Source: a virus
Length of the DNA: 64,000 bases
Direction: 5' to 3' (one strand)
IMG/VR virus record: IMGVR_UViG_3300018421_000015
Coordinates: 22,300 to 86,299 of that record
In this document: piece after piece, positions 2,446-58,955 of the stretch
Layout of the letters: each line of letters starts with the position of its first letter
Numbering within the stretch: the first letter of the stretch is position 1
Made by a program: the position numbers and the translations under genes
The notes under the pieces: generated by a model
Told to the model about the DNA's origin: nothing
Seen by the model: the letters and a program-made list of their open reading frames with translations, nothing else
The model's database searches: none

Positions 2446-3190
2446 ACGATTTGTAGTTGTAGGCGCTGGCGGTGTTGGTACCTGGCTATGCGCTGGTCTA
2501 GTACGCTTACTTGAGTGGAAGTATCCAGGCTCTGCTCTTATTATTGTAGATGGAGATACTTATGAAGAAAAGAATAAAGAGCGTCAAGACTTTACTAAAA
2601 TTGGAAACAAAGCCGTTGTCAAAGCAGCGGAACTCACTCCGCAATTCCCTAACACAACCATTATACCTGTGCCAAAGTGGGTGGTCGGAGACGACTTTAG
2701 TGGCGTCGCAGACGAAGATTCACCAAAGATAAAGGCCACTGATCTTATCCATGAAAACGACGTTGTTTTTGCGGTTGTTGATAACTTTGCTGCTCGTGCT
2801 ATACTTTTTGATGCCGCAAGGAAGCTCAATAACATTGACGTTTTTACAGGCGGTAATGATGATGAATTGTTTGGTTCTATTTATCATTATCAAAAGCGTG
2901 ATGGATTAGAAATCACTTGTCATCCAGAAGAGTTCCATCCTGAATATCTTAACCCACCAGATAAGAATCCAGGTGAACTCTCTTGTCAAGAACGATCAGA
3001 AATAGAAGGTGGCACTCAGCTACTAGCTACTAACATGGCGGTAGCTGCCTTCATTCTTGGTCGTGTACAAAAAACAATAGTGTCAAATCAAAACCCTGAT
3101 GAGACAGAGGTCTTCTTTGATCTCGGTCTTGGTAAGGCGGAGCCTTTCAATAGGACTCATGCTCATCTTAATGAACCATCATTAGTATAA
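2438..3190 (+). CDS. ThiF/E1-like Ubl-activating enzyme
   Basis: GAGGVG nucleotide loop, IVDGDTYEEKNKERQ, GNKA, AVVDNFAAR, and candidate catalytic Cys in LSCQE. The ATG overlaps the JAB stop. Confidence 0.9.
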   Translation: MSKRFVVVGAGGVGTWLCAGLVRLLEWKYPGSALIIVDGDTYEEKNKERQDFTKIGNKAVVKAAELTPQFPNTTIIPVPKWVVGDDFSGVADEDSPKIKATDLIHENDVVFAVVDNFAARAILFDAARKLNNIDVFTGGNDDELFGSIYHYQKRDGLEITCHPEEFHPEYLNPPDKNPGELSCQERSEIEGGTQLLATNMAVAAFILGRVQKTIVSNQNPDETEVFFDLGLGKAEPFNRTHAHLNEPSLV

Positions 3191-3202
3191 TAGGAGAATA
3201 CA

Positions 3203-3454
3203 GTGGAAGCTACAAGCAACAATTCACAGCCCACCCCTGCAACTGGTATGGCGAATCTTCGCTATGGCGTTTACAATCAGCCAAGCAACATCGCTGGTAA
3301 AACTGTCAAGGAAGTTCGTGATCAGTTCAGCAAGATTTGGGGTATCCCATCTGATGCTGTCGCATACTGCGGCAAGGAAAAGATGGATGAGAACGCCACA
3401 ATCGAGCCTGGTCAGAACATCGAGTTCCATCGCCGTGCTGGCGAGAAGGGCTGA
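3203..3454 (+). CDS. Ubiquitin-like beta-grasp protein (Prok_Ub/PRTRC protein C-like)
   Basis: 83 aa with GKTVKEVR..., and C-terminus IEFHRRAGEKG ending in Gly. Directly follows E1. AGGAG RBS with GTG start. Confidence 0.85.
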   Translation: MEATSNNSQPTPATGMANLRYGVYNQPSNIAGKTVKEVRDQFSKIWGIPSDAVAYCGKEKMDENATIEPGQNIEFHRRAGEKG

Positions 3455-3474
3455 GATTTCCTCCAACAGGGAAT

Positions 3475-3510
3475 TTAGGGGGGAGTAGGCTAATACCTGC
3501 TCCCCCCTAA
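3475..3510 (+). terminator. Strong stem-loop after the Ubl gene (attenuator or stabiliser)
   Basis: TTAGGGGGGAGTAGG-ctaata-CCTGCTCCCCCCTAA: 15-bp stem with one G:U pair and no U-tract. Confidence 0.6.
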
Positions 3511-3547
3511 CTAAACTCAAACCCAGATTATTAGATTGGTTATTATT

Positions 3548-5131
3548 ATGATTAACAAAATTAAGCTGGGACTACCGAATCTCTGGTTGCAAGATCCAGA
3601 TTTTATTCGCTCAATCGATATAATAGTTTCGGCGGTTCCTGACCGAAACTATTATTACATCGATAGCATTAAAGGCTTCTGTAAATATGTAGACAATGAG
3701 TGGAAGCCAGTACTCGTACAAAATCCTCGCTCTGACGAAGAAGGCGAAAGCGATTACATAACCACTGACCATCCAGAACTTGCTAACGATTACCTGGATA
3801 ATTCCGATGAGCTCAATGTAACTGTCTTCAAGTTTATTGCCGGTGTCGATGCCGAAAGACTTCAGTACAGAATACCTATGCTGTACGATGCCCTTTCTAG
3901 GTATCGCCAAGCATTTTGGTCAGATTCTAAAACCGATCTTCCTCAACAAGTTATTTACATTAGTCCCCAAGAATGTCCAGAACCTCTAACGCCCTGCTTT
4001 GAAGTTCTGGAAAGTGTTTATCCTAACCTGTCAGAACTTGCAACAGTTCTTACACACATTAAAGACCGTGCTCCTAATTCTTTTGATGAAAACAATATCA
4101 AAGAAATTGCTCGCGCAGGTCTAGGCTTTAGTGAAACCGAATTCATATTTGCATGCCTTAATGTCATCAGCGAAGAAAAAACTTTGACCGCTAAGCATGT
4201 TAATGATATTAAAATGTCTAATATTAAGTCTCGTGGTATTCTTGAAATTATCAACCCCAATATAACCTTCGACAACATTGGTGGTCTTGATAATATTAAA
4301 GATATCATTAGGCGCACTTCAGTTCTTCGCCAAAACCCTCAGCTTTCTGAGGACTACGGCATAACTCCTATCAGAAGAATGCTTATGGTTGGTGTTCCTG
4401 GTACTGGTAAATCAGCAATCTGTCAGGCAACTGCTGCTGAGCTTAATCTTGATCTTGCTCGTACTGGTATTGCACAAGTTATGAACAAGTATATTGGCCA
4501 GTCAGAAGCCAACATGCGCGCTGTATTTCAGCAGATCAAACTCATGAATCCTTTATGCGTTTGGATTGACGAGTTTGGCCGTGATCTTTCAGGTAGTGGA
4601 GACGGTGCCGACAGTGGCACCACTGACCGTGTTCATGGTGAGTTCTTAACAGGTCTTCAAGAACTTCCTGAAGAATCATTCCTTTTGTGCGCAGCTAATG
4701 AGCTTCATTCTCTTAAGCCAGAAATGTTACGCGCAGACCGATTTGACAAGATATTCTTTGTCGGTCTGCCATCACATTCCGAGCGTAGCCATATCTTTAA
4801 GATTCATCTTAGCTCAATCAAAAACCAAGAGTATGATTATGACGCGCTTGCTGAATCTTCTGCCTTTATGACCGGTGCAGAGATAGTTTCTCTTATCAAA
4901 GAAACTAAGTTCTATGTTGTTTCTGAACATGCTCGTCCAATCAATACCAACGATATTCTCCAACGCATTCCTACCATCCGTAATACTATCTGGCGTAAGC
5001 ATCCCGATACTGTTAAAAGCATGTATCAATATGCTCTTGAACAGTGGGATTGGGCCTCGACAGAACAGATGGAAGATGCTAAGATAATTCTTGGTAGAAA
5101 TAAGTCTTCAACTAAACTATCATTTGCGTGA
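3548..5131 (+). CDS. AAA+ ATPase (Ycf46/SpoVK/Cdc48-like)
   Basis: FDNIGGLDNIK, Walker A GVPGTGKS, pore loop KYIGQSE, Walker B VWIDE, SRH PEMLRADRFD. Confidence 0.92.
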   Translation: MINKIKLGLPNLWLQDPDFIRSIDIIVSAVPDRNYYYIDSIKGFCKYVDNEWKPVLVQNPRSDEEGESDYITTDHPELANDYLDNSDELNVTVFKFIAGVDAERLQYRIPMLYDALSRYRQAFWSDSKTDLPQQVIYISPQECPEPLTPCFEVLESVYPNLSELATVLTHIKDRAPNSFDENNIKEIARAGLGFSETEFIFACLNVISEEKTLTAKHVNDIKMSNIKSRGILEIINPNITFDNIGGLDNIKDIIRRTSVLRQNPQLSEDYGITPIRRMLMVGVPGTGKSAICQATAAELNLDLARTGIAQVMNKYIGQSEANMRAVFQQIKLMNPLCVWIDEFGRDLSGSGDGADSGTTDRVHGEFLTGLQELPEESFLLCAANELHSLKPEMLRADRFDKIFFVGLPSHSERSHIFKIHLSSIKNQEYDYDALAESSAFMTGAEIVSLIKETKFYVVSEHARPINTNDILQRIPTIRNTIWRKHPDTVKSMYQYALEQWDWASTEQMEDAKIILGRNKSSTKLSFA

Positions 5132-19675: not shown

Positions 19676-20500
19676 CCACCTATTTGCTATCCATTCCAAC
19701 ATTCTAGAGAGCCAATTTCCTTTTCCATCTTTTTTTTCAAGAAGTTCATCTTTATCTCGCTGCTCTTTTTTGTATCTAGATTTTTGATTAATTGGAATAA
19801 ACGTAGATTTAAAACCACGCTGAGAAAGAAGATCGTATATACTACCGTCACCCCAAATGTAATTAATCCCTTTTTGCCTAGGAATAGGTACCACATGCTG
19901 CATAATTTCACCTATTTCTATAGTAAATTCTTTATCAGTCAATATGTTCAAAACTATATTTGCATGATGGTAATAATCGGTATTTACTAATGCTGGCAAA
20001 AGTGTATAGTTTGGATTAGGTTCCCAAAGTGGAGGAAGGAAAATGGAAGACCACCCTGGTGCCGTTTTAAATAGCCAGGGATTTATTATTTTAATATAAT
20101 TTGCTCTCTCAAGTTTTCTTACCCTAGTCACTGGGCATTCTCCACTTTGATGAAAACCAAAACCTTCAACATGAAATTCGTGATTACCAGCAATGTCAAA
20201 TCTACTTTCCCAAAATGAACCATCTGGAGATGGTCTGAAATGCAGTCTTGCCCACATCGGTATATTGAAACCAAGAGATATATAATCAGCTGTCCCAGAA
20301 CATCTTCTCAATGCACCATCTCCAGAATCTAAATCTTTCCACCAATCTGGCCAATTTCTCCAGTTATCAATTGGCATTACTTCAGGGTCATAGAGCATTT
20401 GTGTATTCGGAGTAATTAAAACCTCACCTGGTTTTACTTTTGGTATATTATAAAAAGAATTAGCTGTCTCTATTTTTAGTTCTCTCAATGGCTTCTCCAT
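19667..20500 (-). CDS. DUF6065-like protein
   Basis: RC...GF.IP, PWLFKTAPGWS, LPALVNTDYY. Parallels the motifs of 48458..49183. Confidence 0.65.
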   Translation of the reverse strand: MEKPLRELKIETANSFYNIPKVKPGEVLITPNTQMLYDPEVMPIDNWRNWPDWWKDLDSGDGALRRCSGTADYISLGFNIPMWARLHFRPSPDGSFWESRFDIAGNHEFHVEGFGFHQSGECPVTRVRKLERANYIKIINPWLFKTAPGWSSIFLPPLWEPNPNYTLLPALVNTDYYHHANIVLNILTDKEFTIEIGEIMQHVVPIPRQKGINYIWGDGSIYDLLSQRGFKSTFIPINQKSRYKKEQRDKDELLEKKDGKGNWLSRMLEWIANRWSR

Positions 20501-21968
20501 GATCTATCATCTTTAAATTAATTAGATTAGAATTTGTCTCGCTTAGATGTTGAGTTGCTATTCTTCTGGATAGGTGTGCATTCAGCGAAACCGTTGCGGA
20601 TTCACTATTTAGAACTCCTTGACCCTGGGCAACGTGCCAGAAATGAGGTATAAAGAAGAGCTCAAATCCATTAGCAGTTATATCATGATCTTCGGGAGGT
20701 CGTTCTGACCATATTTCCAAAAGCTTCTGTAGCATTAGAGGCTTAGGTCTATTTTGTTGATCTAACCACATCTTAGTGTCATTTCTGTCAGAAATATAAT
20801 GTAAACAAATCATACTCAAAGCATTTTCCATAACTTCATTCATTATCTTATTATATTCTCTTATGGAGAATTCTGTCTTTTCGTTAAAGTTTGCTATATA
20901 TGAGCATAGTAATCTGGCCTGCTGTATCCCTATTGATATGGTTGTAGCCTCTAAAGGTTCGATGAAGCTATACGATAGGCCTATTGATACACAGTTTTTT
21001 TGCCAAGGTTCGCTATAATAGCCGGGTCTGAACTTAATGAATCTAGGATTTTCTATTTCAATACCATGAAACTCTTCAGCCTCAATAATCGCCTCCTCTT
21101 CAGTTATATAAGAGGAAGAGAAAACATATCCATTACCTTTTCTTTCTTGAGTTGGTATTTCCCACATCCACCCAGCATTCATGCTGATAGCTCTTGTGTA
21201 TGGGTGAATCTTTCCAAATATGTCTTTATCAGTTTGAAAAACTAGAGCTGTATCACAAGGTAAGTATTCGCTAAATGAATTAAACTCCACATTCTGCATT
21301 TTACTGGACAGCACTCTTGCAAATCCTGTTGCATCTATAAAAAAATCTCCAGATATTTTACTATCGAAACCATTAACTTTTATATATTTTATATGACCAT
21401 TTGAACCCTTATTTACAGATTCAATTTCACCTTCAACAAATCTTATGCCCATGTTATTGGCAAAGTTCTTAAGATATTTGTTGAGAAGAAATGTATCAAA
21501 ATGATATTGATTTGTTCCAAGATGAGTTTTATCTGGCTCTGTATCATCTTCACTAATCCCATCTATAACCTGATCCTCAATCATGCCTTTCCAGGAAAGT
21601 GAATTTGTTAAAAGGATTTCATTTTCTAGCAAAAAGCTATAGGTTGCATAGAAGGAGTTTCGTTTAATTCCTGTACCAGAAACAGAATGGATATACTTTG
21701 GCGTATGATTATTCCATCCCTCAAACATGATTCCATATTTGTGGGTGACGCCTGCAAATTTAATCATATCATCTACATTTATTCCAACAAAATCCTGAAA
21801 CCATCTCCAATGTTCCGTAGACCCCTCTCCTACGCCTATAATAGGGCTTTTTTCGGAAAAGCATACGGTTATGTCATATAAGGGGAATGTTTTTTTTAGA
21901 ATTATTGCAGTTGTCAATCCCGATGTACCAGCTCCGGCGATGACGATATGTTTTTGATCTATCTTCAT
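20460..21968 (-). CDS. Flavin-dependent (tryptophan halogenase family) halogenase
   Basis: GAGTSG, IGVGEGS, catalytic-type Lys in THKYGI, FFIDATGF, GWMWEIP (WxWxIP), FIEPLEAT. Confidence 0.92.
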   Translation of the reverse strand: MKIDQKHIVIAGAGTSGLTTAIILKKTFPLYDITVCFSEKSPIIGVGEGSTEHWRWFQDFVGINVDDMIKFAGVTHKYGIMFEGWNNHTPKYIHSVSGTGIKRNSFYATYSFLLENEILLTNSLSWKGMIEDQVIDGISEDDTEPDKTHLGTNQYHFDTFLLNKYLKNFANNMGIRFVEGEIESVNKGSNGHIKYIKVNGFDSKISGDFFIDATGFARVLSSKMQNVEFNSFSEYLPCDTALVFQTDKDIFGKIHPYTRAISMNAGWMWEIPTQERKGNGYVFSSSYITEEEAIIEAEEFHGIEIENPRFIKFRPGYYSEPWQKNCVSIGLSYSFIEPLEATTISIGIQQARLLCSYIANFNEKTEFSIREYNKIMNEVMENALSMICLHYISDRNDTKMWLDQQNRPKPLMLQKLLEIWSERPPEDHDITANGFELFFIPHFWHVAQGQGVLNSESATVSLNAHLSRRIATQHLSETNSNLINLKMIDHGEAIERTKNRDS

Positions 21969-47560: not shown

Positions 47561-48181
47561 TTAGCCCAATATCTCATTTATGCACTCTCTAACTGTCCAG
47601 CTTTCACCGGTTGTAAGAGGCACTGTATCGAGTGGCATTGATTGCCAATTAAATCTTCCAATCATAGTTCCTGATCTACCGACAACAAACATCTCCCAGG
47701 CATGAGGTATTCTAGCCAGGGCTGCACCTTCCTGATTCCATCCATCTTGCGCTTCCTGAGAGTTGTCGGCCATGTTGTCAGACTTGTTTCTTAGAGCTTT
47801 ACCCTTCAATAGGGAATAAACTTCACATTCATCTGGCCCATTAACATCAACCTTTTCAGCTATAGGAAAAGTAACGAAAGGATATGTTTCTTTCATGAAG
47901 GAACTTATCTCCTCATTTGTACCAGTTTCCATTAGACCCTGAACAAACTGATTACAGGGAAATGCAACTACGCTAAACCCTCTATTCTCAAACTCTTCTT
48001 GTAGCTTTTGCAGCTGCCAGAAATGCCTAACAGATCTTGCGTATGACCAGAAGGTGGAGCACTGTGGTGTGTAGTTATACTTAGAAACTGTATTAACTAT
48101 AAGAGTAACTTTACCCTTGAATTGCTCCATAAAATTATCTTCGCCATCTATTGACTTAACTGGCACATCGTAAATAGACAT
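47561..48181 (-). CDS. Glutathione peroxidase-family protein (atypical)
   Basis: GKVTLIVN, GFSVVAFPCNQF, TFPI..KVDVNG. The canonical Cys position reads Tyr. Confidence 0.88.
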   Translation of the reverse strand: MSIYDVPVKSIDGEDNFMEQFKGKVTLIVNTVSKYNYTPQCSTFWSYARSVRHFWQLQKLQEEFENRGFSVVAFPCNQFVQGLMETGTNEEISSFMKETYPFVTFPIAEKVDVNGPDECEVYSLLKGKALRNKSDNMADNSQEAQDGWNQEGAALARIPHAWEMFVVGRSGTMIGRFNWQSMPLDTVPLTTGESWTVRECINEILG

Positions 48182-48465
48182 TATATTACCTCACACTTTG
48201 CTTCAATATATACCTGTTCCAAAAGTGGATCTTCCACCTTTATTACACTGCTATCGCTACCTAGGGAAAAGATTAACCTACAATCAAAAGGAACGGTCAG
48301 ATCCCCTTCTGCCAACAAGCCCTTTTCATCATTAAAAACTATATTTAAATCTGCAGAACCTTTAAATATAGATAAGGTTAACTCAGTATCACTTTTCTTC
48401 TCAATAGAAAACTCTTCATCACCAAGCGGCGTAACTACTTTCATCTTAGATGGGATGCTATCCAT
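48181..48465 (-). CDS. hypothetical protein
   Basis: ORF track. GAGGT RBS. Confidence 0.65.
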   Translation of the reverse strand: MDSIPSKMKVVTPLGDEEFSIEKKSDTELTLSIFKGSADLNIVFNDEKGLLAEGDLTVPFDCRLIFSLGSDSSVIKVEDPLLEQVYIEAKCEVI

Positions 48466-49183
48466 TGTATTCAACCTCTTTCATTTCTGGTTCTTGCAGG
48501 TCGGGTAGACCATCATGTCTAGGACCTATTCTTTCACCTTTTTCATTTAATCCTGTGCGTATTCCGTTCATCCACGTCCAGGGCTCATCACGAAGCTTTT
48601 TCATCTTGGCCTCGCTGTAGGACATTCTTTCATCCATAAGATCTGGTTTATCCCAAAGGTATTCAACCTCAACTTCCATTTCTGGCATCAAGTTAGAGGG
48701 GTATACTGAAAAGAATATGAACGGCATCCCTGCAGGAAATACCACTGGCTCATTAACCTTAGTTATCTTCCAACCAGCTTGAACCTCATCTGGCCACCAA
48801 TCAGAGGGGATGCTAGCCGTAAGTGGTACAGCGCCATCAATAAAATAGTTTGGTGAACCACTAATCCATGTATGATATCCAGGCTCTGTCTTAAAAGCCC
48901 ATCCAATATGAAAATCGATCATACCTATCTTATTGCAATTCGCAATAGTTCTACCACGGTAGACATCACCTTCAACGATTTTAGGGACACTGTTGCCACC
49001 TTCCCAAGTGACAACAATGTCCTGCTGCAAAATGGCTTCCCAACCATTTACATTTGCAGCACTGAGTGGAAGACATCTATAAGCATGTTTGTTATAGGTG
49101 TCATCCATCCAGTCTCTTTTCAGTCTCGACTGCTTTATTTCAGGCGAGATCTGATGTGTTCTTATTAAGGTAAGCTTTGACAT
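48458..49183 (-). CDS. DUF6065-family protein
   Basis: RDWMD.T..KHAYRCLPL..AN..GW, FKTEPG...GSPN, PL...I.SDW, F..G.PF. Confidence 0.8.
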   Translation of the reverse strand: MSKLTLIRTHQISPEIKQSRLKRDWMDDTYNKHAYRCLPLSAANVNGWEAILQQDIVVTWEGGNSVPKIVEGDVYRGRTIANCNKIGMIDFHIGWAFKTEPGYHTWISGSPNYFIDGAVPLTASIPSDWWPDEVQAGWKITKVNEPVVFPAGMPFIFFSVYPSNLMPEMEVEVEYLWDKPDLMDERMSYSEAKMKKLRDEPWTWMNGIRTGLNEKGERIGPRHDGLPDLQEPEMKEVEYNG

Positions 49184-50070
49184 TATTTAGCGCCTGCCAC
49201 ATATTGTTGATATTGACCCATATTAGCCATGTCCCCACCATGGGTTTGCCACTGCCTATAGCTTTCCATCGCATACTTTTGGATCTCTTCTAGTATTATC
49301 TCCCTAAGTCTAACCTCATCCATGTTGATCGGCTCATTACCCTTCTTAAGGGTCGCTGACCCACCAGACTTTACCACCGGCACTTCGTCAGCATTAAAAG
49401 AAGGTTTCTCTGGCTGCGAATACGACTGACCAAAATCTCTGGAGAATCCACCATGCTGATGAGCGTCATCATTATAATCAAACATTGTTACAGCACTATA
49501 CTTTATACCTGAAGTAACTGGTTTTGAAGCGTGGGCAAACAAAAAGGTTGACGGGAAAAAAACGCTGTCTCCAGCTTTAGGATAGTATGTTAAGTCCAGG
49601 TAAGGAAAATACAACTCTCCACCTTCGTAGTCATCGTTCAGATATGTAACACAAGACACTGTGCATATGTAGGAGAACCCATGATCAGTATGGGTACTGA
49701 AGTGCTCGTTTACGCCGTATCTGACAAAGTTAATAGCCTCCATATAGTTCATTGTTATACCATATGCCGAGCAGTAATCTTTTAAGCATTCCTTTTGTGC
49801 TCCGGCTACCGATGTATAAACATCAATAATATCAGAAAACTCTTCTGGAGTACCAGATATATACTTATCATCCATCTTAAAATCGACACAGTCCCTATAG
49901 TCTGGCATCTTTACGCCTTCGCCAACAAGAGAATCATGCCACTTAAAATAGTCATGAGTACTATCACGAAGAGCTGTCTCCAATCTAATTGGAACATTAA
50001 CTTCTGGTGATACAGAATCATTATATACTACTATCCCCATTTTGGGATCTCCTAGGTATTCTTTTTTCAC
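49183..50070 (-). CDS. 2OG-Fe(II) oxygenase, P4H-like
   Basis: HTD...YLNDDYEGGELYF...FAHAS.PV.SG.KY. Confidence 0.92.
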   Translation of the reverse strand: MKKEYLGDPKMGIVVYNDSVSPEVNVPIRLETALRDSTHDYFKWHDSLVGEGVKMPDYRDCVDFKMDDKYISGTPEEFSDIIDVYTSVAGAQKECLKDYCSAYGITMNYMEAINFVRYGVNEHFSTHTDHGFSYICTVSCVTYLNDDYEGGELYFPYLDLTYYPKAGDSVFFPSTFLFAHASKPVTSGIKYSAVTMFDYNDDAHQHGGFSRDFGQSYSQPEKPSFNADEVPVVKSGGSATLKKGNEPINMDEVRLREIILEEIQKYAMESYRQWQTHGGDMANMGQYQQYVAGAK

Positions 50071-50639
50071 TTTGTCTCCTTATTTAGTATGTGCCAAAAT
50101 CCAGTACATGCTGATCTATCTCCAGATTCTACCTCAATAACGGTATGCATGTGGTCTTCATCTGAGGGAAAGTATATTGCTGAACCAGCCAATGGCTGTA
50201 TTTCAATATCCAAGTCTGGGAACACTAAACTACCTCCCTCAAAATTCTCTGTCAAATAAAGTATAGAGCTTATATCTCTGCTTGGGAGCCCACTGTATGT
50301 AGGTAAATCAGACCAGCAATCTGCATGATATTCGAGAACCCATCCGGGAGTATATCTAACAACAGTACCAATACCCTCTTCACCCACTGTGCAGTTAAAA
50401 TCTTTTTCTATATTTTCTTTTATTATTTTATTTTTTTCCTCTAGAATCAAGGAGGCCATACAACAACTGCTTCCCTCCCCAAGAATCTCTCCTTGTTCTC
50501 CCACTTCGAAAAACTGATTGTCACTAAGCTCATCTTTGTTCCAGACAGCTTCACCTATACAATCGTGTACAGTCTTTAATTCTTCATGAGTAAATAAGCT
50601 AGCAATAATATATATATCTTTTATCTTAATTTTTCTCAT
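50067..50639 (-). CDS. 2OG-Fe(II) oxygenase, P4H-like
   Basis: HAD...FEGG.LVF...HMHTV..V.SG.R. Confidence 0.9.
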   Translation of the reverse strand: MRKIKIKDIYIIASLFTHEELKTVHDCIGEAVWNKDELSDNQFFEVGEQGEILGEGSSCCMASLILEEKNKIIKENIEKDFNCTVGEEGIGTVVRYTPGWVLEYHADCWSDLPTYSGLPSRDISSILYLTENFEGGSLVFPDLDIEIQPLAGSAIYFPSDEDHMHTVIEVESGDRSACTGFWHILNKETK

Positions 50640-51259
50640 AGAAGCTCCGTGATGGTATAAAAAGAGGGTGTAGTCCATCTTTCACCCTGAATCACAGGCT
50701 TAACACCATGCAGGTAGTGAATATCACCTGGATGAGCAACAGCTAGACCCGGTTTTATCTTTAGCTCAATGTCAAACTCTGGGTAATAGAATTCTCCACC
50801 CTCAAAGTCTTCATTCCAGTATATTATGGAATTAATATCATAAGTAGGAAATGGATTTGGTGATCCATCATTCAACTGTTTATCAGCATGAGGTTGCTGC
50901 TCGTTACCCGGTAACCATCTAATTAAAACTGGCGGTCTCTGATATAACTTCACTTTAAATTTATCTTCAAGCGCTCTTTGCATCTTGACAATATATGAAT
51001 CGATGAGATTATATATATCAGGATTTAATTCACCTATTATTCTTCCAGAACACATTCTGTCCCACCAATACGATGCGTCGTAGGTGCAAGTACCATCTTC
51101 GTTGAACTCATCTTCCATAGGATTCTCCCACTTATCTATAGTTGGAAAGAAGTCCTGAAGGATTTTGAGATCAGACGGCTCCACGAAGTCTTCAATAATA
51201 AGTATATTATCTAAAGAGTCACCAAAATGACCAGGCTGAATTAAAGATTTTTCTTCCAT
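50636..51259 (-). CDS. 2OG-Fe(II) oxygenase, P4H-like
   Basis: HAD...DFEGGEFYYP...YLHGV.PV..GER. ATG at 51259. Confidence 0.92.
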   Translation of the reverse strand: MEEKSLIQPGHFGDSLDNILIIEDFVEPSDLKILQDFFPTIDKWENPMEDEFNEDGTCTYDASYWWDRMCSGRIIGELNPDIYNLIDSYIVKMQRALEDKFKVKLYQRPPVLIRWLPGNEQQPHADKQLNDGSPNPFPTYDINSIIYWNEDFEGGEFYYPEFDIELKIKPGLAVAHPGDIHYLHGVKPVIQGERWTTPSFYTITELL

Positions 51260-51265
51260 AAAAAC

Positions 51266-51276
51266 AGTATACCACA
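51266..51276 (-). promoter_or_regulatory. extended -10 promoter, leaderless
   Basis: TGTGGTATACT lies 6 nt upstream of ATG 51259 and there is no SD. Confidence 0.6.
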
Positions 51277-51308
51277 ACCTACCCCGGACTATCAATCCGG
51301 GGTAGGTT
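51276..51308 (-). terminator. intrinsic terminator-like hairpin after the FN3/PPFF gene
   Basis: Perfect 13-bp stem AACCTACCCCGGA/TCCGGGGTAGGTT with a 7-nt loop. Confidence 0.75.
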
Positions 51309-51314
51309 TACTTC

Positions 51315-53471
51315 TCACTTAAATGATGGTGGGAAGAATGGCGGGAAGAATGGTGGGAAGAATGGCGGGAAGAATGGCGGGAAATAAGGTGGGAAGTAAG
51401 GCGGGAAGAACGGTGGGAAGAACGGTGGGAAATAGGGTGGGAAGAACGGTGGGAAGAACGGTGGGAAGTAAGGCGGGAAGAACGGCGGGAAGAACGGTGG
51501 GAAGTAAGGCGGGAAAAACGGCGGGAAGAATGGTGGGAAATATGGTGGGAAGAATGGTGGGAAGAACGGTGGGAAGTAAGGCGGGAAGAACGGTGGGAAA
51601 TATGGCGGGAAGAATGGCGTAATAGTTGTACCATCACCAGACCTTTCGTAATACCCATTCCAAGGATTAACAGAAATAAACCACTCTCTATTATCCAAAC
51701 CTGATATAGTACCACTCCAAGTATTAGCAGCATTGGGGATGATAGCCTTCAATGTAAAAACACTACTCCCAGTTAGTGGCGTTGGAGATGCATATATTTT
51801 GTAATTATTCGGCGCGTAACTAGACCCACCGAATCCTCCACCAGTCCAGCTAACAGTAACCTGACCTTCAGTAGCGGTGTTAGTTAAGGTAACATTACTA
51901 ATGTCCCCCGGTACACCAGCTGACTGAACCTCTGTTGTACTTGTTCTCCAACCAGAGCTTGCCACATCATTATTTGATCTAACCCTATATTCGTATATAG
52001 ATCCTTGTGTGGTACTATGGGTATACGACGTGCTAGAAGTAGTAGTTACAGTTGACCATGAGCCAGAATTGTTTACATTTGCCTGCAATGTATAGGTAAT
52101 GCTTGAGTCACCAGCACCATCAGAAGCTGACCAGCTAATATTAATCTTATTACCATAGCTAGTGCTATCTCCAATGACATGACCCTGACCAGTAATCGTT
52201 TCCCCAACAGTATCTACACCACCATCGCCAGTAGCCTCATGTGAATATGAAATACTCGCTGGTGTTGAAGGAGTTCCGAAAACTAAAATACTAGCTGAAG
52301 CTGAATAATTAGAACCGGTATTAGTGTTATTATTGAACGTTTTTAATCTTACATAATATGTAGTATTAGAAGATAATCCACTTAAGGACGAAGATGTGCC
52401 GATGGTTGATGTAGAATAAAGCCAAGTTGCATTGTCGGTTGAATAATATACGTCAGTAACTATGTTACCTGCAGCTGCGCCGCCATAGTTTCCTGTTTTC
52501 GTCCAAGAAATATATATAGATCCAGAACTTAATCTTGACAAAGAAGGAGTACCCGGTGCACCAGGCTCATCGTAAGCTGTGGCCGAAGCACTAGAGCTGT
52601 ATGATGAACTGCCAACAGAGTTATTTGTTCTAACTCTAAAGTAATACACTTGACTTGCACTAGTATCATCAGGGACATCGTACCCAAGTGTAGCACTGGT
52701 TCCAGTCACACCTGTTGAAAGATTAAACCACGTGGCATTATCTGTAGAGTATTGAACGTCGTAAGTTCTATTAGCAGTGGTGTCTCCACCTAAAGAGGTA
52801 ACATGAGACCACGAAACAGTTAGCGTAGCTGGATCTGCGGTAGTGGTTGCTGAGGCAGAAATGGAAGGAGCAGAAGGAGTAGTAAGTGGGGTAGCAGTGG
52901 ATCCACCCTGAACATAAGAGGATTGATATAAACTATTTTCAGTTCTAACACGATAATAATAGGCGGTGCCGTTAGTTAGAGATGTTATAGTCTTAGAGTT
53001 TGTTCCAAAAGCAACTGTTCCAGCACTTGTCCAAGTAGAACCATTTGTAGAATACTCTACCCTGTAAACAGTGTTTGCATTTGTGTCTCCACCGGTATCG
53101 CCTGCCGACCAAGAAACTGTAATCTGACCGTTGCCTACTGATGCACTAAGTGAAGAAGGAGCTCCAGGTGTTGTTATGAAAGATAATAATGAAACAGGCG
53201 TATAGGCTTCACTGACTACGCCAGAATCAGTAGTAGCAACAACAGTGATAGCGGGGGTAGTACCTGCAGATATGTCGCTAGAGGTAAAAGTAATTACGTT
53301 GCTTGTTGAAGACTTTTCGACAACACCATTTGAAGCCTTATAAGTGATTGCATCTTCCCCGTCTCTACCGGCATACTCCAGGGTTACGGTTACTACAAAA
53401 TTACCATCACTGTTTGCTAAAGAAACATCACTAATTATTGGTTGCTTACCACCATAATCTTTAACTGCCAT
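51315..53471 (-). CDS. Multi-fibronectin type III virion-type protein with C-terminal (PP[F/Y]F)n tail
   Basis: About five FN3 repeats (P.AP...I.VSW...Y.V.YS...W...L...T.YY.RVR..N) followed by a Pro/aromatic repeat. Confidence 0.88.
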   Translation of the reverse strand: MAVKDYGGKQPIISDVSLANSDGNFVVTVTLEYAGRDGEDAITYKASNGVVEKSSTSNVITFTSSDISAGTTPAITVVATTDSGVVSEAYTPVSLLSFITTPGAPSSLSASVGNGQITVSWSAGDTGGDTNANTVYRVEYSTNGSTWTSAGTVAFGTNSKTITSLTNGTAYYYRVRTENSLYQSSYVQGGSTATPLTTPSAPSISASATTTADPATLTVSWSHVTSLGGDTTANRTYDVQYSTDNATWFNLSTGVTGTSATLGYDVPDDTSASQVYYFRVRTNNSVGSSSYSSSASATAYDEPGAPGTPSLSRLSSGSIYISWTKTGNYGGAAAGNIVTDVYYSTDNATWLYSTSTIGTSSSLSGLSSNTTYYVRLKTFNNNTNTGSNYSASASILVFGTPSTPASISYSHEATGDGGVDTVGETITGQGHVIGDSTSYGNKINISWSASDGAGDSSITYTLQANVNNSGSWSTVTTTSSTSYTHSTTQGSIYEYRVRSNNDVASSGWRTSTTEVQSAGVPGDISNVTLTNTATEGQVTVSWTGGGFGGSSYAPNNYKIYASPTPLTGSSVFTLKAIIPNAANTWSGTISGLDNREWFISVNPWNGYYERSGDGTTITPFFPPYFPPFFPPYFPPFFPPFFPPYFPPFFPPFFPPYFPPFFPPFFPPYFPPFFPPFFPPYFPPFFPPFFPPYFPPYFPPFFPPFFPPFFPPFFPPSFK
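51321..51617 (-). repeat. 12-bp coding tandem repeat: PFF + 24 x PP(F/Y/S)F
   Basis: Direct translation. Higher-order PPYF-PPFF-PPFF (36-nt) period. Variation is mostly synonymous. Confidence 0.95.
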
Positions 53472-53504
53472 TTTCTACACCTATCTTAAATTTAAACCTA
53501 AACA

Positions 53505-53513
53505 ATTATAACA
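53505..53513 (-). promoter_or_regulatory. extended -10 promoter
   Basis: TGTTATAAT upstream of 53471. Confidence 0.45.
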
Positions 53514-53521
53514 TTTTTTAG

Positions 53522-56500
53522 CTATGCCGACAAGTCGCCGGTAACTATCCAGGTATCTGAACCCCTCTTAATCAACGTGGCCATAGAATACTGATCTCTT
53601 AACTTCAAGCCTGGCGTTGCATGAGCAGAAACTCCAGAACCAGCAGCTATAGTAGTTTGACCAGCATTGGTTTGAAGAACCATAATTTGCGTACCAATTG
53701 GGAAGTTTACACTCGACTCAGGTGGTATGGTTAAGGTATTGGTGCTCGTGTGGCTCATCTCAATCATCTTATCTTTATCAGATAATGCTAAAGTATATGA
53801 AGCTGTCTGCTGATTAAACTTAACTAGTGAAGAACTAAATTCTATTTCGTCAGTACCATTACCAACAACAATCTTGTCCTCGGTTGTATCCCAAGCAATC
53901 CTTCCATCTGTAGATGAAGTTGTTGTCGACAAAGTTAACTCTGGCGTATTTACTACGGGTGAAGTCAAAGTTTTATTAGTCAAAGTCTCAGTACCGGCGA
54001 CAGTCGCTGCAGTCCCTGAAGCTGGAAGTGTAATGCTAGATCCGGAGGCATCAGCCGTAAATGTTACATTCCCAGTGTTAAGGGTAATTGTTCTACCCGC
54101 ATTGTTCACACCTGTGCCGCCATAAGCAGAGTCTATTACAGTTGCGTTCCATGTGCCGGATGTAAGAGTTCCTACTCCGGTAATCTGAGTTTGACTTGCA
54201 TTAACTGAAAATTCTGTACCAGTTAAAGTTAATCCAGTTCCAGCAGTGAATGCTCCTGCACCAGAGAACTGAATAAACGTAACATCACTTGATCCAACAC
54301 TTGTTACTGGCTCAGACAAAACCCATCCAGTATCAGCGTAAGAAGACCCATGGGTAACAAATATAAAGTCACCACCAGCCATTTCCGTAGGTGTATCGAA
54401 ATCATCTGCACGCGTCAAAACTGTTGTTGAAGTAACAACGTAAACACCATTGTGTGCAGATGTAGACTCACCTGCAATAAGAACTCTATCATCAGTTGTG
54501 AGATCAGTATCTCCGTCAATGTCACCACCAGATAAATCAAGAGCGGTTGAAAGCGTTAATGTTGCACCAACTCCATCAGTTCCATTGTCATAAGTTACCG
54601 TATCTCCAGTAATAGTGGCCAAAGATGTTGTTGTTATCGCATGAACCTGCTCGTGAACGTGTAAACCTTCCGAGACAGCATCAACGTAGCCCTTGGTTGC
54701 GGCATCCGTTGACTGCGTTGGAGTAGACAGATTAGTAATCTTGTTGCTATTGGCATCTATATCTCCACCGGCTTGAATGGTACTACTAAACACTGCTGCA
54801 CCAGTTACATCCAAAGTCCCAGTTACGGTAAGATTATCATCAACAGTGGTCTCTCCGCTAGCAGAATCAAGTGTTAGACCATCAGAAGATGTATCAATTT
54901 CGTTGTCTCCAGTGACCCCGACCTGAATATTACCAAGTGTTCCACCAGCAAACGTAGGACTGTCTCCAGTTGCCACAGACTGACCAATAGCAACTGTCGT
55001 TGCTGCACCTTCTCCGGTGCCAGAAGTAACTGTTACACCAGTACCAGCTGTAATTGATTCAATATAGTCTCCTGTAGTATCAGTACCCAGGGCAACGCTG
55101 TCTGCTGCAACTGTAGCCGTTAGTGTTACATCTGCTGAGCCATTTACTGATACAGAACCAGTTAAATCACCGGCCAATGTAATAGTTCTTGCTGTTGCCC
55201 AAGTTGATGCGGTGCTTGCATTTCCTGTAACATCCCCAGTTAAGTTAGCAGTAACGGTATTAAACGTAACATTTGAGGTGGTTTCAACTGCTTGACCTAT
55301 GGAAACTGTTGGGGTTTGACCCTCTCCAGTATCTACGGAAACTGCGATACCTGTTCCAGCTACCAGGTTCTGAACATAATCCCCTGTAGTATCGGTTCCC
55401 AAAGCAACACTGTTGGCAGATATTGTTGTGCTAATCGAAACATCTGCTGATCCATCTATTAAAACGTCGCCTGTGACATCACCTGTAAGCGCTATCTGCC
55501 TAGAAGTGGCCCAAGTTGATGCTGTGTCAGCGTTACCAGTGACATCACCCGTGACATCTCCAGTGACATCTCCAGTGACATTTCCAGTTACGTTGCCAGT
55601 AAGATTGCCAGTGACATTACCTGTTACATCACCCGTGACGTCACCAGTAACATTTCCGATAAGGTTACCGCTAACATCACCAGTAACATCACCAGTAACA
55701 TCTCCAGTTAGATTCCCCGTAACATTACCTGTAAGATTACCCGTGACATCTCCGGTGATGTCACCAGTGACGTTACCAGTAACATTACCGGTAATATCAC
55801 CAGTGACATCTCCGGTAAAAGTTTTGTTTAATGAGTCTACTATTTTTACTGGGGTAGCATCCTGAGAGTAAACATCTCCTGTTAGATCACCATCAACATT
55901 ACCGGTTAGGTTACCGGTCACATTACCGGTCACATTCCCAGTTAGGTCTCCGGTTACATCTCCAGTTAAGTCACCAGCGACATTACCGTTAACACTTCCC
56001 GTTACATCACCTGTAACATCTCCAGTTAAATTACCAGTAACATTACCGGTTAAATTACCCGTAACATCACCGGTTACATCACCGGTAACATCACCTGTAA
56101 CATTTCCAGTTACGTTTCCAGTTACATTGCCCGTAACGTTACCGGTCAAATCACCAGTAACACCACCAGTAAATGAAGCGTTTGTGCCATCTGTTCCGCT
56201 ATGTAATACTCGTGACGTTCCGTTAGATGCGTAAACATCTCCGATCACATTACCGGTCACATTACCAGTCACATTACCTGTCACATTACCAGTCACATTA
56301 CCAGTTAGGTCTCCGGTTACATCTCCAGTTAAATCACCAGTGACATTACCGGTAACGTTACCGTTCAAGTCACCAGTAACATCACCGGTAAATGAAGCGT
56401 CTGTACCATCTGTTCCGCTATCTAATATTTGTGATCCATTACTCGAATAAACATCTCCCGTTACATTACCGGTCACATTACCGGTTACATTACCTGCAAC

Positions 56501-57826
56501 GTCACCAGTTACATCACCTGTCAGATCACCAGTAAATGATGTCGAAGTTACGGAAGATAAACCCGTTAATGATGAATCTAAATTGATTGTATTATCAGAT
56601 TTCGATAGATTATCTCCAGCTGTTAATGTATTAGTTCCAGTAAACTGTGTATATGTAATACTATCTGTGCCTAGCACATGCACATTGTTTGTACCAGAAC
56701 CATAAGAAACTATAATAAAACCCTGATTACCATTTAATGTTCCAGCAGTAGCAAAAACGGCATCGCCGGTATTAATCGATTCAGGTGAGCCATCAGCATC
56801 TGTTGCCCTTGTCAATTCCCAGGTCGTAGTTGACGAACCCTGATCTGTTACTTCGTATATACCATTCTGTGACGCAGTTGACTGATTCTTAATCAGAACC
56901 CTATCACCCGTAGTAGCATTTGATCCATCTATAGATAACCTACCATTAGTAGTTGCAGAAAGTGTAGCACCTACGCCACTAGTACCGTTATCATATGAGG
57001 GGCTATTTGACAGGGCACCAGCTGAAGCATACCTGACGGCTTCGTGCCAGTGCACACCGGCTGCAATAGAGTCAGCATAGGCTTTGGTAGCTATTTCACC
57101 AGTGTTAACTGCTATAGTAGGGGTTGAGTTTTCTCCAGAATTATTAGTTAAACTAATACCGGTGCCTGCAACAAGTGAGGCTACATAATCACCAGTTGTA
57201 TTGGTTCCAAGCTCAATGCTATCAGCCTGAATTGTGGCAGTTATGTTTATATCTGTTGAGCCATTAAACGAAGCTGAACCTGCAACATCACCAGATATTT
57301 GAATAGTACGAGAGTTCGCAAGCGTAGTAGCAGTACCAGCATTCCCGCTTACATTACCAGTTACATCACCAGTAACATCACCAGTAAGATCACCAGTAAC
57401 GTTGCCGGTAACATTACCAGTAACATTGCCGGTTACGTTGCCACTTAAATCGCCAGTAATATCGGCGGTAACGGTATTAAAAGTAACATCTGAGGTTGTT
57501 TCAACAGCTTGACCAATTGCAACTGTAGGGGTGGCATTTTCGCCAGAATTGTCGGTAAGAGTTATGCCCGTACCGGCAACAAGTGACTGAACATAGCTTC
57601 CAACAGTGTCTGTTGCCAAATCTACTGGATCATTAATCCAATTAGATCCATTATGCCTAAGAAAGTCGCCACTTGCGACATCTTCAATTACAACATCACC
57701 GATACTATTAATACTATCAGCTATAGTTACTTCTCTTATCCACGCGGTTCCATTCCATATCCAAGATGCTCCATCTACAGAATATGTGTCATTGACCGAA
57801 GGATTGTCAGGAAAATTTAAAGCCAT
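53522..57826 (-). CDS. Long tail fibre-like protein with G(N/D)(V/L)T tetrapeptide arrays
   Basis: Extensive GNVT/GDVT/GDLT runs, four T.T.G.Y..SL.AGTG modules, a duplicated DRVL...NG.Y.V...LTRA.D domain and a C-terminal YTL..D...QYS.ATLIKR..DTW domain. Confidence 0.85.
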   Translation of the reverse strand: MALNFPDNPSVNDTYSVDGASWIWNGTAWIREVTIADSINSIGDVVIEDVASGDFLRHNGSNWINDPVDLATDTVGSYVQSLVAGTGITLTDNSGENATPTVAIGQAVETTSDVTFNTVTADITGDLSGNVTGNVTGNVTGNVTGDLTGDVTGDVTGNVSGNAGTATTLANSRTIQISGDVAGSASFNGSTDINITATIQADSIELGTNTTGDYVASLVAGTGISLTNNSGENSTPTIAVNTGEIATKAYADSIAAGVHWHEAVRYASAGALSNSPSYDNGTSGVGATLSATTNGRLSIDGSNATTGDRVLIKNQSTASQNGIYEVTDQGSSTTTWELTRATDADGSPESINTGDAVFATAGTLNGNQGFIIVSYGSGTNNVHVLGTDSITYTQFTGTNTLTAGDNLSKSDNTINLDSSLTGLSSVTSTSFTGDLTGDVTGDVAGNVTGNVTGNVTGDVYSSNGSQILDSGTDGTDASFTGDVTGDLNGNVTGNVTGDLTGDVTGDLTGNVTGNVTGNVTGNVTGNVIGDVYASNGTSRVLHSGTDGTNASFTGGVTGDLTGNVTGNVTGNVTGNVTGDVTGDVTGDVTGNLTGNVTGNLTGDVTGDVTGSVNGNVAGDLTGDVTGDLTGNVTGNVTGNLTGNVDGDLTGDVYSQDATPVKIVDSLNKTFTGDVTGDITGNVTGNVTGDITGDVTGNLTGNVTGNLTGDVTGDVTGDVSGNLIGNVTGDVTGDVTGNVTGNLTGNVTGNVTGDVTGDVTGDVTGNADTASTWATSRQIALTGDVTGDVLIDGSADVSISTTISANSVALGTDTTGDYVQNLVAGTGIAVSVDTGEGQTPTVSIGQAVETTSNVTFNTVTANLTGDVTGNASTASTWATARTITLAGDLTGSVSVNGSADVTLTATVAADSVALGTDTTGDYIESITAGTGVTVTSGTGEGAATTVAIGQSVATGDSPTFAGGTLGNIQVGVTGDNEIDTSSDGLTLDSASGETTVDDNLTVTGTLDVTGAAVFSSTIQAGGDIDANSNKITNLSTPTQSTDAATKGYVDAVSEGLHVHEQVHAITTTSLATITGDTVTYDNGTDGVGATLTLSTALDLSGGDIDGDTDLTTDDRVLIAGESTSAHNGVYVVTSTTVLTRADDFDTPTEMAGGDFIFVTHGSSYADTGWVLSEPVTSVGSSDVTFIQFSGAGAFTAGTGLTLTGTEFSVNASQTQITGVGTLTSGTWNATVIDSAYGGTGVNNAGRTITLNTGNVTFTADASGSSITLPASGTAATVAGTETLTNKTLTSPVVNTPELTLSTTTSSTDGRIAWDTTEDKIVVGNGTDEIEFSSSLVKFNQQTASYTLALSDKDKMIEMSHTSTNTLTIPPESSVNFPIGTQIMVLQTNAGQTTIAAGSGVSAHATPGLKLRDQYSMATLIKRGSDTWIVTGDLSA

Positions 57827-57914: not shown

Positions 57915-58955
57915 TTACTGTAGAGAGTCTGACATCATGTTCAAATTATTAGAAAATCTTTCATTATCTGGCTCTAATAAAAGAGCCGCTTTACAGTACT
58001 TTATCGCTAATTCATGCATTCCGAGATTCCAAGATGCTATTGTTGCCATATCATATGGGTGTGAACCCCAAGCTTCCGCCTCACATAGATATTCTAAAGG
58101 TTTCTCTTTAATAACTAAAGCACTCTCTACGGCAGACAGGCACTCTATCCACCTAGAATTTACATAATAATATCCAGCTAACTCAATCCAAGGCTCTCTC
58201 CTGTCGGGAGACTCTGCACACGCTTTTAATAGCCAGGGATATCTTTCCCCGCTTACTCTAGACAAATACCTCATTGCGGTAGCTCTTTCGGGCTTCCATT
58301 TAGATATTTCTAAGTACTTTAGAAATTGCTCTTCAGCCTGATTATTCAATCCGGCGAACATATATTCTCTGCCTAAGTAAAATCTATTTCTGTCATCACT
58401 TGGATCTTCCCTAATTGACAATTCTAACAGTGGGAGATACTGAGATCTTGACTTAGTGGAATCTGGATAGTGGTGAATCTCTAAATCTATCCAACCCTGA
58501 TTTTCTTCTATGGAAGGCTTTAAAACTTCGTGAACAGGATGCTTCCATCTGTACCCATTCCTGGAATGAATTTTGTCACCAGAATACACAAGACCTTCTG
58601 ATGAATCCTCGTTCCAAGACCAAACATATTTATACCTGGGACGAGTAACTAATGGGTCAACACGCTCTAAATGGTCGCGCCAACCTTTTGTTAAAATTTC
58701 GTCTGCATCTAAAGCTATACAGTAATCGTAATCAGAAGGAATCAAAGACAATGCTACGTTCCTGGCATCATCAAACCGCCAAGGCATCACTGATGCTGAG
58801 TGTACGGTACATCCTGCCAGTAGAGCTTTCTCTACTGTTCCATCAGACGAACCAGTATCTAGTATCAACCTGAGATCGGCTTCTGCACAAGATTCTGCCC
58901 AGCGTTCAATAAACTTCTCTTCATTTTTTGCAATTGTATAGACAGCTATTTTCAT
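57915..58955 (-). CDS. GT2 glycosyltransferase with TPR domain
   Basis: IAKNEE, LDTGSSDGT, FDDARN, LDADE, VHE, followed by TPR-like helices. Confidence 0.9.
   Translation of the reverse strand: MKIAVYTIAKNEEKFIERWAESCAEADLRLILDTGSSDGTVEKALLAGCTVHSASVMPWRFDDARNVALSLIPSDYDYCIALDADEILTKGWRDHLERVDPLVTRPRYKYVWSWNEDSSEGLVYSGDKIHSRNGYRWKHPVHEVLKPSIEENQGWIDLEIHHYPDSTKSRSQYLPLLELSIREDPSDDRNRFYLGREYMFAGLNNQAEEQFLKYLEISKWKPERATAMRYLSRVSGERYPWLLKACAESPDRREPWIELAGYYYVNSRWIECLSAVESALVIKEKPLEYLCEAEAWGSHPYDMATIASWNLGMHELAIKYCKAALLLEPDNERFSNNLNMMSDSLQ

Follow-up and report, generated by a model that had tools for sequence, protein, structure and literature searches.

A proline- and aromatic-rich PPxF tail encoded beside prolyl-hydroxylase-like oxygenases in the tail-fibre locus of uncultured large phages

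The tail gene and its locus

We have analyzed a 64,000-nucleotide stretch of viral DNA, bases 22300–86299 of IMG/VR virus record IMGVR_UViG_3300018421_000015 (hereafter the window), in which a surface protein that ends in a long series of PPxF units is encoded directly upstream of three genes for prolyl-hydroxylase-like oxygenases. The source record is 86.3 kb long and is estimated to be 41% complete; complete relatives of its lineage measure between 202 and 268 kb. The DNA derives from an uncultured large phage, and the tail gene is part of its tail-fibre locus. This gene, an open reading frame (ORF) on the minus strand (51315..53471), encodes 718 aa. The first ~615 residues hold FN3 repeats (Pfam fn3 in three stretches, E 6.7e-17), and the protein matches the PHROG families 'central tail fiber J' (1.9e-17) and 'minor tail protein' (5.7e-11).

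The order of features 3' of the tail gene, all on the same strand, is a 55-nt gap, oxyA (50636..51259), oxyB (50067..50678), oxyC (49183..50070), a gene for a DUF6065 protein (48458..49183), a 97-aa ORF and a glutathione-peroxidase-like (GSHPx-like) gene (47561..48181; Pfam GSHPx E 1.1e-24), which closes the conserved block.

Sequence and repeat structure of the tract

The tail (51318..51617, minus strand), as delimited by ORF translation and Tandem Repeats Finder, reads PFF, 24 PPxF units and a terminal Lys. Its Pro/aromatic tract occupies residues 619 to 717 (nt 51321–51617), 99 residues in all, of which 49 are Pro, 41 Phe, 8 Tyr and one Ser; the single Lys (51318–51320) and a TGA stop codon (51315–51317) follow. 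Counted from the first PP pair, the four-residue units comprise 15 PPFF, 8 PPYF and one PPSF, the PPSF unit standing last. Tyr is carried by units 1, 3, 6, 9, 12, 15, 18 and 19, that is, mostly by every third one. The ORF translation bears out every detail that the first-pass annotation of the window had given for the tract from the letters.

At the DNA level, Tandem Repeats Finder reports 24.3 copies of a 12-nt period (82% matches) and, slightly better, 7.5 copies of a 36-nt period (87% matches, score 391). Codon positions 1 and 2 of the 12-nt unit are constant across the 24 units except at nt 8, where the switch between Phe, Tyr and Ser occurs. The remaining variation in the tract lies in third codon positions, with Pro encoded by CCA 23 times, CCG 19 times, CCT 5 times and CCC once. 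Because the variation apart from the F/Y/S switch is synonymous, the repeat is maintained at the protein level, and the earlier proposal of selection on the protein is borne out. The PPxF frame runs on from the FN3 ORF without a break. The repeat is also open in two further frames (51308..51733 on the minus strand and 51323..51622 on the plus strand), which were considered and set aside as its by-products.

The Tyr spacing was also considered as a general rule that would line up one face of a polyproline-II helix, and this was rejected: in homologues the Tyr residues are bunched at one end of the tail or the other, or scattered irregularly. The 36-nt period points to duplication of a unit of that size as a likelier source of the every-third-unit pattern than any structural rule.

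With no Gly anywhere in it, the tail does not qualify as a collagen-like triple helix. Plant extensins and other hydroxyproline-rich glycoproteins contain Pro/Tyr-rich repeats that are thought to form extended polyproline-II rods and are modified by enzymes of the prolyl 4-hydroxylase (P4H) type; the motifs that define extensins are Ser-Pro(3–5) blocks and the Tyr cross-link motifs YxY and VYK. The tail, in contrast, has PP pairs only, one Ser, no Ser-Pro(3–5) blocks, no YxY and no Ser/Thr for O-glycans, and half of it (50%) is Phe/Tyr. The extensin comparison drawn in the first-pass annotation therefore holds as a functional analogy only; neither the Ser-Pro(n) and YxY motifs nor a Tyr spacing general to the homologues goes with it.

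Oxygenases oxyA, oxyB and oxyC

The three genes downstream of the tail encode members of the prolyl-hydroxylase type of 2-oxoglutarate/Fe(II)-dependent (2OG-Fe(II)) oxygenases, by profile, by iron triad and, for oxyA, by its double-stranded beta-helix fold. Of all the neighbours of the tail, oxyA is the best conserved. PF13640, with a cut-off of 27 bits, scores 47.4 bits against oxyB and 45 bits against oxyC, the latter carrying a 100-aa C-terminal extension. The best solved relative is prolyl 3-hydroxylase 1 (P3H1) for oxyB (5e-7) and for oxyA searched alone (4e-5), and Bacillus anthracis P4H for oxyC (1.4e-7). A profile of 39 oxyA orthologues matches P3H1 at 4.2e-8 and the B. anthracis P4H at 5.5e-6. 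In these 39 orthologues the iron triad of oxyA (H124, D126 and H184) and R194, the basic residue predicted to bind 2OG, which make up the HxD...H...R signature, are invariant; the HxD...H motifs of oxyB (YHAD...HMH) and oxyC (THTD...AHAS) were located by eye.

An AlphaFold2 (AF2) model of oxyA (pLDDT 92.7) has as its top fold match the collagen prolyl hydroxylase of chlorovirus PBCV-1 (5c5t; E 2.1e-10, TM 0.57–0.65). Further matches, all with E ≤ 4e-8, are P3H1 (8k0m), PHD2, the B. anthracis P4H, lysyl hydroxylase LH3 and the algal Cr-P4H. PF13640, the sequence relatives and the oxyA fold together make 'prolyl-hydroxylase-like', the label these genes had received in the first-pass annotation, a fair name for predicted enzymes of this kind. 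Among phage records, tblastn with oxyA gave four weak partial matches, which fall in two marine single-cell viruses and in S-SKS1. The genes of S-SKS1 are arranged differently in this region, and a scan of that locus for a Pro/aromatic tract found nothing.

The DUF6065 protein (PF19541 E 6e-41) is not an oxygenase. Its AF2 model (pLDDT 87) is predicted to have a dUTPase-like fold (Foldseek E 6.6e-5; VIA Z 10.6, root-mean-square deviation 5.4 over 130 residues), a resemblance that assigns no function, and its residue C37 is invariant in 33 orthologues. Its sequence profile matched nothing significantly in the PDB, tblastn with it gave 0 matches in 50,697 phage records, and the word DUF6065 was found in no paper. 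Both phage lineages described below have this protein as the third constant component of the tail-oxygenase block, and its Atlas clusters are mostly viral.

A family of PPxF tails

At least 117 viral contigs match a degenerate DNA pattern that spells four units (PPFF-PPYF-PPFF-PPFF), and a word-seeded protein search with residues 560–718 gave 134 matches, with PPxF runs in 41 of the 120 matches listed. The heads that precede the tails vary: some are FN3 arrays of diverse length, others are small proteins with PASTA domains (Pfam E 1.9e-7 to 8.6e-10). Tail length ranges from about 25 to 172 residues in relatives. One close relative (P0001) has 7 units where the window has 24, at 96% identity over the part aligned by BLASTP, which is 57% of residues 560–718.

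The ends of the tails are more regular. In the lineage of the window, the tail starts with PPYF in 88 of 124 distinct ORFs, and 80 of the 124 end exactly in PPxF, Lys and a stop codon. The last x of such ends is mostly small or basic (Ser 18, Ala 17, Arg 16, Gly 12). The 718-aa protein of the window stops after Lys718 and has no Peptidase_S74 domain. Three further distinct ORFs continue from the Lys directly into such a domain, position 1 of the profile being the next residue (SDVRDK), and S74 domains with the S-x4-K dyad spacing stand right after '...PPxFK' in relatives L051, L105, L138 and L145; in L051 the PF13884 match (E 1e-11) starts at the residue following '...PPAFK'. S74 domains are described, in the available parts of the source, as assembling the upstream part of a protein into a trimer and then cleaving themselves off by means of a Ser-Lys dyad with the same spacing as in these relatives (PMC8326128). 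Since the S74 domain cuts itself off, we infer that the S74-bearing relatives mature to the same '...PPxFK' end with which the other proteins are translated. By this analogy the tail family is probably fibre-like and trimeric. The same C-terminal domain is found in S74-terminated fibres and spikes such as endosialidase endoNF and the L-shaped fibre of T5; in the known cases covered by the available text (PMC8326128) it follows a triple beta-helix or a coiled coil, whereas in the tail relatives it follows a Pro/aromatic repeat.

What comes after the tract differs in a second lineage: a Hint domain (PT-HINT E 7.8e-7), a Cys-rich knot or a short tail. Four of its proteins (P0003, P0004, P0006 and P0023) consist of FN3 domains and a Pro/aromatic linker (with PFF/PYF and FPPGFGP among its variants) that leads straight into Hint at a Cys. 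Self-cleavage by Hint would leave the linker of these four as the C-terminus, possibly with an adduct.

Relatives outside metagenomic viral contigs are scarce. Megablast of 49000–54000 matched none of 50,697 phage records. With the 718-aa protein, tblastn against the same records gave FN3 matches only, to three Microbacterium phages, the low-complexity filter masking the tail. Megablast and tblastn with the 718-aa protein, oxyA and DUF6065 found no cultured relative. PF07068 (Gp23), searched as a mark of T4-like phages, was unmatched in G000 and four complete relatives, but it was unmatched in the control genomes too and so says nothing on such an affiliation. The strict four-unit pattern matched a single contig in 185,579 species genomes, a 22.6-kb piece of a GTDB metagenome-assembled genome (MAG). 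With its fibre genes and a PPxF-K protein of the PASTA type, this contig (L354) reads like phage; it is apparently phage DNA that ended up in the bin of a bacterial MAG, and gives no host clue. The PPxF tails are a large, undescribed family with swappable adhesion-type heads, variable length and, normally, a position at the mature C-terminus.

Linkage of tail and oxygenase genes

The linkage between tail and oxygenase genes is tight and one-sided in two phage lineages. It was counted on distinct ORF sequences with enough flank, duplicates being removed only where ORF sequences were identical; counts per locus include related, partly overlapping contigs, and ORFs shorter than 60 aa from stop to stop were left out of both kinds of count. 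In the window's lineage, 57 tails selected by the tail pattern have a downstream flank of 3 kb or more and 35 an upstream one; an oxygenase falls inside those 3 kb for 48 of the former and for none of the latter. Where the flank is at least 8 kb, the figures are 20/21 downstream and 2/15 upstream. Selection by oxyA gave the same picture, with an oxygenase within 3 kb downstream in 42 of 45 and upstream in 0 of 31. In the second lineage (the FN3-linker-Hint relatives) the corresponding counts are 111/122 and 7/92 for distinct ORFs, and 135/139 (median gap 193 bp) and 2/104 per locus. The first-pass annotation had held that tails commonly found without oxygenases would refute its reading; the link came through this test, with downstream counts of 48/57, 42/45 and 111/122.

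The association also appears when approached from the enzyme. Relatives of oxyA are encoded in at least 598 viral stretches, and 66 of 78 new loci picked by oxyA similarity alone contain an ORF with (PPxF)≥4. In the second lineage, where oxyA is ~40% identical, complete records measure 105–154 kb and PF13640 is found in 49 of 50 records, a tract ORF is present in 153 of 155 loci, in the form of FN3-linker-Hint or Cys-knot proteins, and DUF6065 in 137 of the 155, usually third in order. The adjacency persists despite inversion of oxyA (at many loci), inserted genes, head swaps and second tract genes.

Whole genomes place the pair in a wider setting. PF13640 matches number 6–10 per complete relative and 6–15 across these phages, and are clustered in one island beside the fibre genes. 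The four complete genomes of the window's lineage have one tail locus each, and 28 of their 31 PF13640 matches lie 1.2–16.5 kb downstream of it. Eighteen records without an oxygenase at the tail locus were scanned over their whole length, and an oxyA match was found elsewhere in nine; of the remaining nine, eight are 5–14 kb fragments and one is 51 kb long.

A second, shorter tract-Hint gene was seen ~1.1 kb past the last oxygenase in six loci of the second lineage (L213, L214, L222, L230, L235 and L277). With this gene at the far end, tract genes bracket the oxygenase block there.

Within the 55-nt gap that separates the tail gene from oxyA is an 11-bp perfect stem-loop (51278..51306, minus strand), with a predicted RNA folding energy of –26.9 kcal/mol (z –5.6 against shuffles). 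A sigma-70-like TTGATA-18-TATACT site at 51295..51266 overlaps it; such sites are no commoner here than in shuffled sequence. The stem-loop may act in attenuation or affect transcript stability, and so set how much structural protein is made relative to enzyme. Short contigs from metatranscriptome (RNA) libraries (X1–X4, labelled salt marsh metagenome) fall on the tail gene, oxyA, oxyC and DUF6065, and 15 of the 17 pieces are at least 99% alike. As assembled contigs, they give no reading of level, strand or transcript ends, and the parts that they leave uncovered carry no meaning. One of them, a 208-nt contig (X2 record 9) with 0 differences, covers 51182–51389 and thereby reaches from the 5' end of oxyA across the hairpin into the 3' end of the tail gene; it fits read-through across the hairpin, as far as a contig, which cannot prove a single transcript, can do so.

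Relation to known systems

On the enzyme side there are precedents in outline. PBCV-1, like the phage of the window, has genes both for a small 2OG oxygenase of the P4H type and for proline-rich repeat proteins of its own. Its enzyme is said, in work by Eriksson et al. from 1999, to hydroxylate peptides of the (Pro-Ala-Pro-Lys)n type. The likeness has limits: oxyA shares only 15–18% sequence identity with the PBCV-1 enzyme vCPH (5c5t), and the window differs in its bacterial host, in a PPxF repeat without Ala/Lys units, in having at least three different oxygenases and in the adjacency of the genes for enzyme and candidate substrate.

Many 2OG-Fe(II) oxygenases of unassigned substrate are encoded by phages of marine and fresh waters. 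Control of 2OG level or DNA repair has been proposed for them, in the available part of Sullivan et al. 2010 (PMC3037559). For the Synechococcus cyanophage Syn9, an array of halogenases, ten dioxygenases and a dUTPase-fold protein has been described (Iyer, Abhiman, de Souza and Aravind 2010, PMC2938197). As far as the available text of that paper goes, the Syn9 array resembles the window in its tandem, non-identical 2OG dioxygenases that follow tail-fibre genes, its tryptophan halogenase and its dUTPase-fold protein with a conserved Cys. The window has the corresponding parts, namely three oxygenases, a tryptophan-halogenase-like gene in the same minus-strand block (20460..21968; PHROG 8.2e-94) and DUF6065 with its predicted dUTPase fold and C37, the relation of DUF6065 to the Syn9 protein being distant since tblastn left it unmatched in the phage records.

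No paper describing phage PPxF tails or their pairing with oxygenases was found in a search that did not extend to subscription journals and supplements. The enzyme side is thus known in outline, through the viral P4H fold match and the Syn9-type arrays, and the tail family and the pairing are new to the literature searched.

Is the tail a substrate of the adjacent enzymes?

Its sequence and position make the tail a candidate substrate of oxyA, oxyB and oxyC, and we lean, with modest confidence, towards the reading that it is hydroxylated by these adjacent enzymes and forms an extended, polyproline-II-like stalk at the mature C-terminus. Under this reading the tail would adopt an extended polyproline-II-like rod, assembly of the protein would, we infer, be trimeric, and the oxygenases would act after translation, with the tail as substrate and hydroxyproline as product; the DUF6065 protein may serve as an accessory. 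Hydroxylation would turn a very hydrophobic Pro/Phe polymer into a more polar and stiffer stalk. The glycan that the first-pass annotation had allowed for as an aid to solubility does not emerge as a conserved feature: within flanks of up to 10 kb from the tail or oxyA, of the window's glycosyltransferase-like genes, the one at 57915..58955 recurs in one of 195 loci and the GT60-like one in 10 of 195.

More tentatively, and with something short of even confidence, we propose that the large oxygenase islands of uncultured aquatic phages are tailoring systems for virion proteins rather than metabolic or DNA-repair genes, and that their primary substrate would be the PPxF tails of fibre-locus proteins, a new class of polymer that several different hydroxylases would convert into a rod, rigid or adhesive, that is rich in hydroxyproline and may be multiply oxidised.

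In a repeat protein that directly precedes their prolyl-hydroxylase-like members, across two lineages and hundreds of phage fragments, such arrays have a concrete candidate substrate that can be tested. If hydroxylation of the tail is correct, bacteriophages would have in it their first structural polymer of the hydroxyproline type within the literature searched, and the tail would also be a new sequence class for polyproline-type rods and a possible determinant of phage attachment to cells. If the islands are tailoring systems as well, they would be a bacterial-virus counterpart of the chemistry of collagen, extensin and mussel-foot proteins.

Several observations weigh against hydroxylation of the tail by its neighbours. 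The PF13640 score of oxyA, at 23.1 bits, is below the cut-off. PPxF is unlike the known P4H substrates (X-Pro-Gly, Ser-Pro(n) and PAPK). The RNA-library contigs, which cannot show one transcript, may also contain DNA. Most generally, the loci all come from related phages, so that a conserved gene order could yield the counts, which are not independent events. Because the PF13640 island adjoins the fibre genes, the last gene of the fibre module would stand beside an oxygenase in any case. There are also loci in which the partners are apart. Two oxyA-centred loci, L192 and L128, have no tail gene at the expected place. L192 is a natural tail-less variant: at 3139–4670 its fibre gene leads directly into an inverted oxyA, then oxyC and DUF6065, and a tail gene is missing from the series. 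In L128 the ORF ahead of oxyA is an unrelated one. Conversely, the 51-kb record of L025 has a tail and no oxyA match. Finally, 40 kb scanned around the Syn9 dioxygenase/halogenase array, which follows fibre genes, contained no Pro/aromatic tract, so such arrays can work without PPxF tails.

The alternative to which most weight has to be given, a real possibility even if we think it doubtful, is that nothing more than synteny has been conserved. The tail would then be an unmodified hydrophobic spacer or anchor, encoded by the last gene of the fibre module, and the oxygenases would act on other fibre proteins, such as those with collagen-like GPT runs or the His-rich 1074-aa protein, on small molecules or on host proteins. 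The clustering of many oxygenases beside fibre genes, the layout of fibre genes and then dioxygenases in Syn9 without a tract, and the retention of oxyA, oxyC and DUF6065 in L192 and L128 without an adjacent tail gene all speak for this alternative. Synthesis of secondary metabolites has been proposed for the phage arrays by Iyer et al. 2010 (PMC2938197), whose available text names no protein substrate for them. The window also holds other possible substrates, in its collagen-like GPT runs and Pro-bearing fibre proteins. Those GPT runs, however, carry Pro at the X position. Pro in the X position is not a canonical P4H site. Conserved synteny also sits less easily with an oxygenase that remains on one side and close by (median gap 193 bp) across head swaps, oxyA inversion, two lineages and bracketing tail genes, or with adjacent enzymes that specifically resemble protein prolyl hydroxylases. 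Were the tail indeed unmodified, the family would still be an undescribed, widespread and length-variable module of phage surface proteins.

It is improbable, in our judgement, that the neighbouring oxygenases modify the tail in some other way, by hydroxylating the aromatic ring or beta-carbon of Phe/Tyr, or the terminal Lys, and so producing a sticky or cross-linkable tip. Three to ten oxygenases that differ from one another come after the tail, the fold matches of oxyA include LH3, the conserved Lys of 80 of the 124 tails comes after a non-aromatic 'cap' unit, and a peroxidase-like gene closes the block, all of which would suit such chemistry. Against it, the best sequence and fold matches of the adjacent enzymes are prolyl hydroxylases, and nothing here favours aromatic hydroxylation.

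The repeat-type precursor of a ribosomally synthesised and post-translationally modified peptide (RiPP) that the first-pass annotation had offered as an alternative, in which PPFF/PPYF units would be excised and cyclised in the manner of antamanide or cyclolinopeptide with the FN3 part as carrier, has in its favour the likeness of PPFF to the cores named there and the presence of tailoring-type enzymes such as the halogenase, but we regard it as very improbable, given that the units are uninterrupted and without leader, recognition or cleavage motifs, that no protease or macrocyclase is found in the conserved block or among the genes conserved over 195 loci (not every gene of the window having been scanned), that the tail is fused to virion-type FN3/PASTA heads in fibre loci, that its length (~25–172 residues) varies as that of a structural spacer does, and that S74 or Hint, where present, would cut only at the C-terminal end of the tract.

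Neighbouring genes

Upstream of the tail gene, on the same strand, lie the gene for a 1434-aa tail-fibre-like repeat protein (53522..57826), the glycosyltransferase-like gene between fibre genes (minus strand; PHROG beta-1,4-glycosyltransferase, 4.4e-108) and genes for collagen-like and tail-fibre-like proteins. The window further encodes a His-rich protein of 1074 aa. At the other end of the block, a homologue of the GSHPx-like gene is present in 78 of the 195 related loci. The 1434-aa protein, which is encoded directly upstream of the 718-aa ORF, matches tail fibre, head decoration and baseplate families of PHROG. It consists mostly of GxVTGxxT-type repeats with a 12-nt period, and Tandem Repeats Finder counts more than 50 copies in one array.

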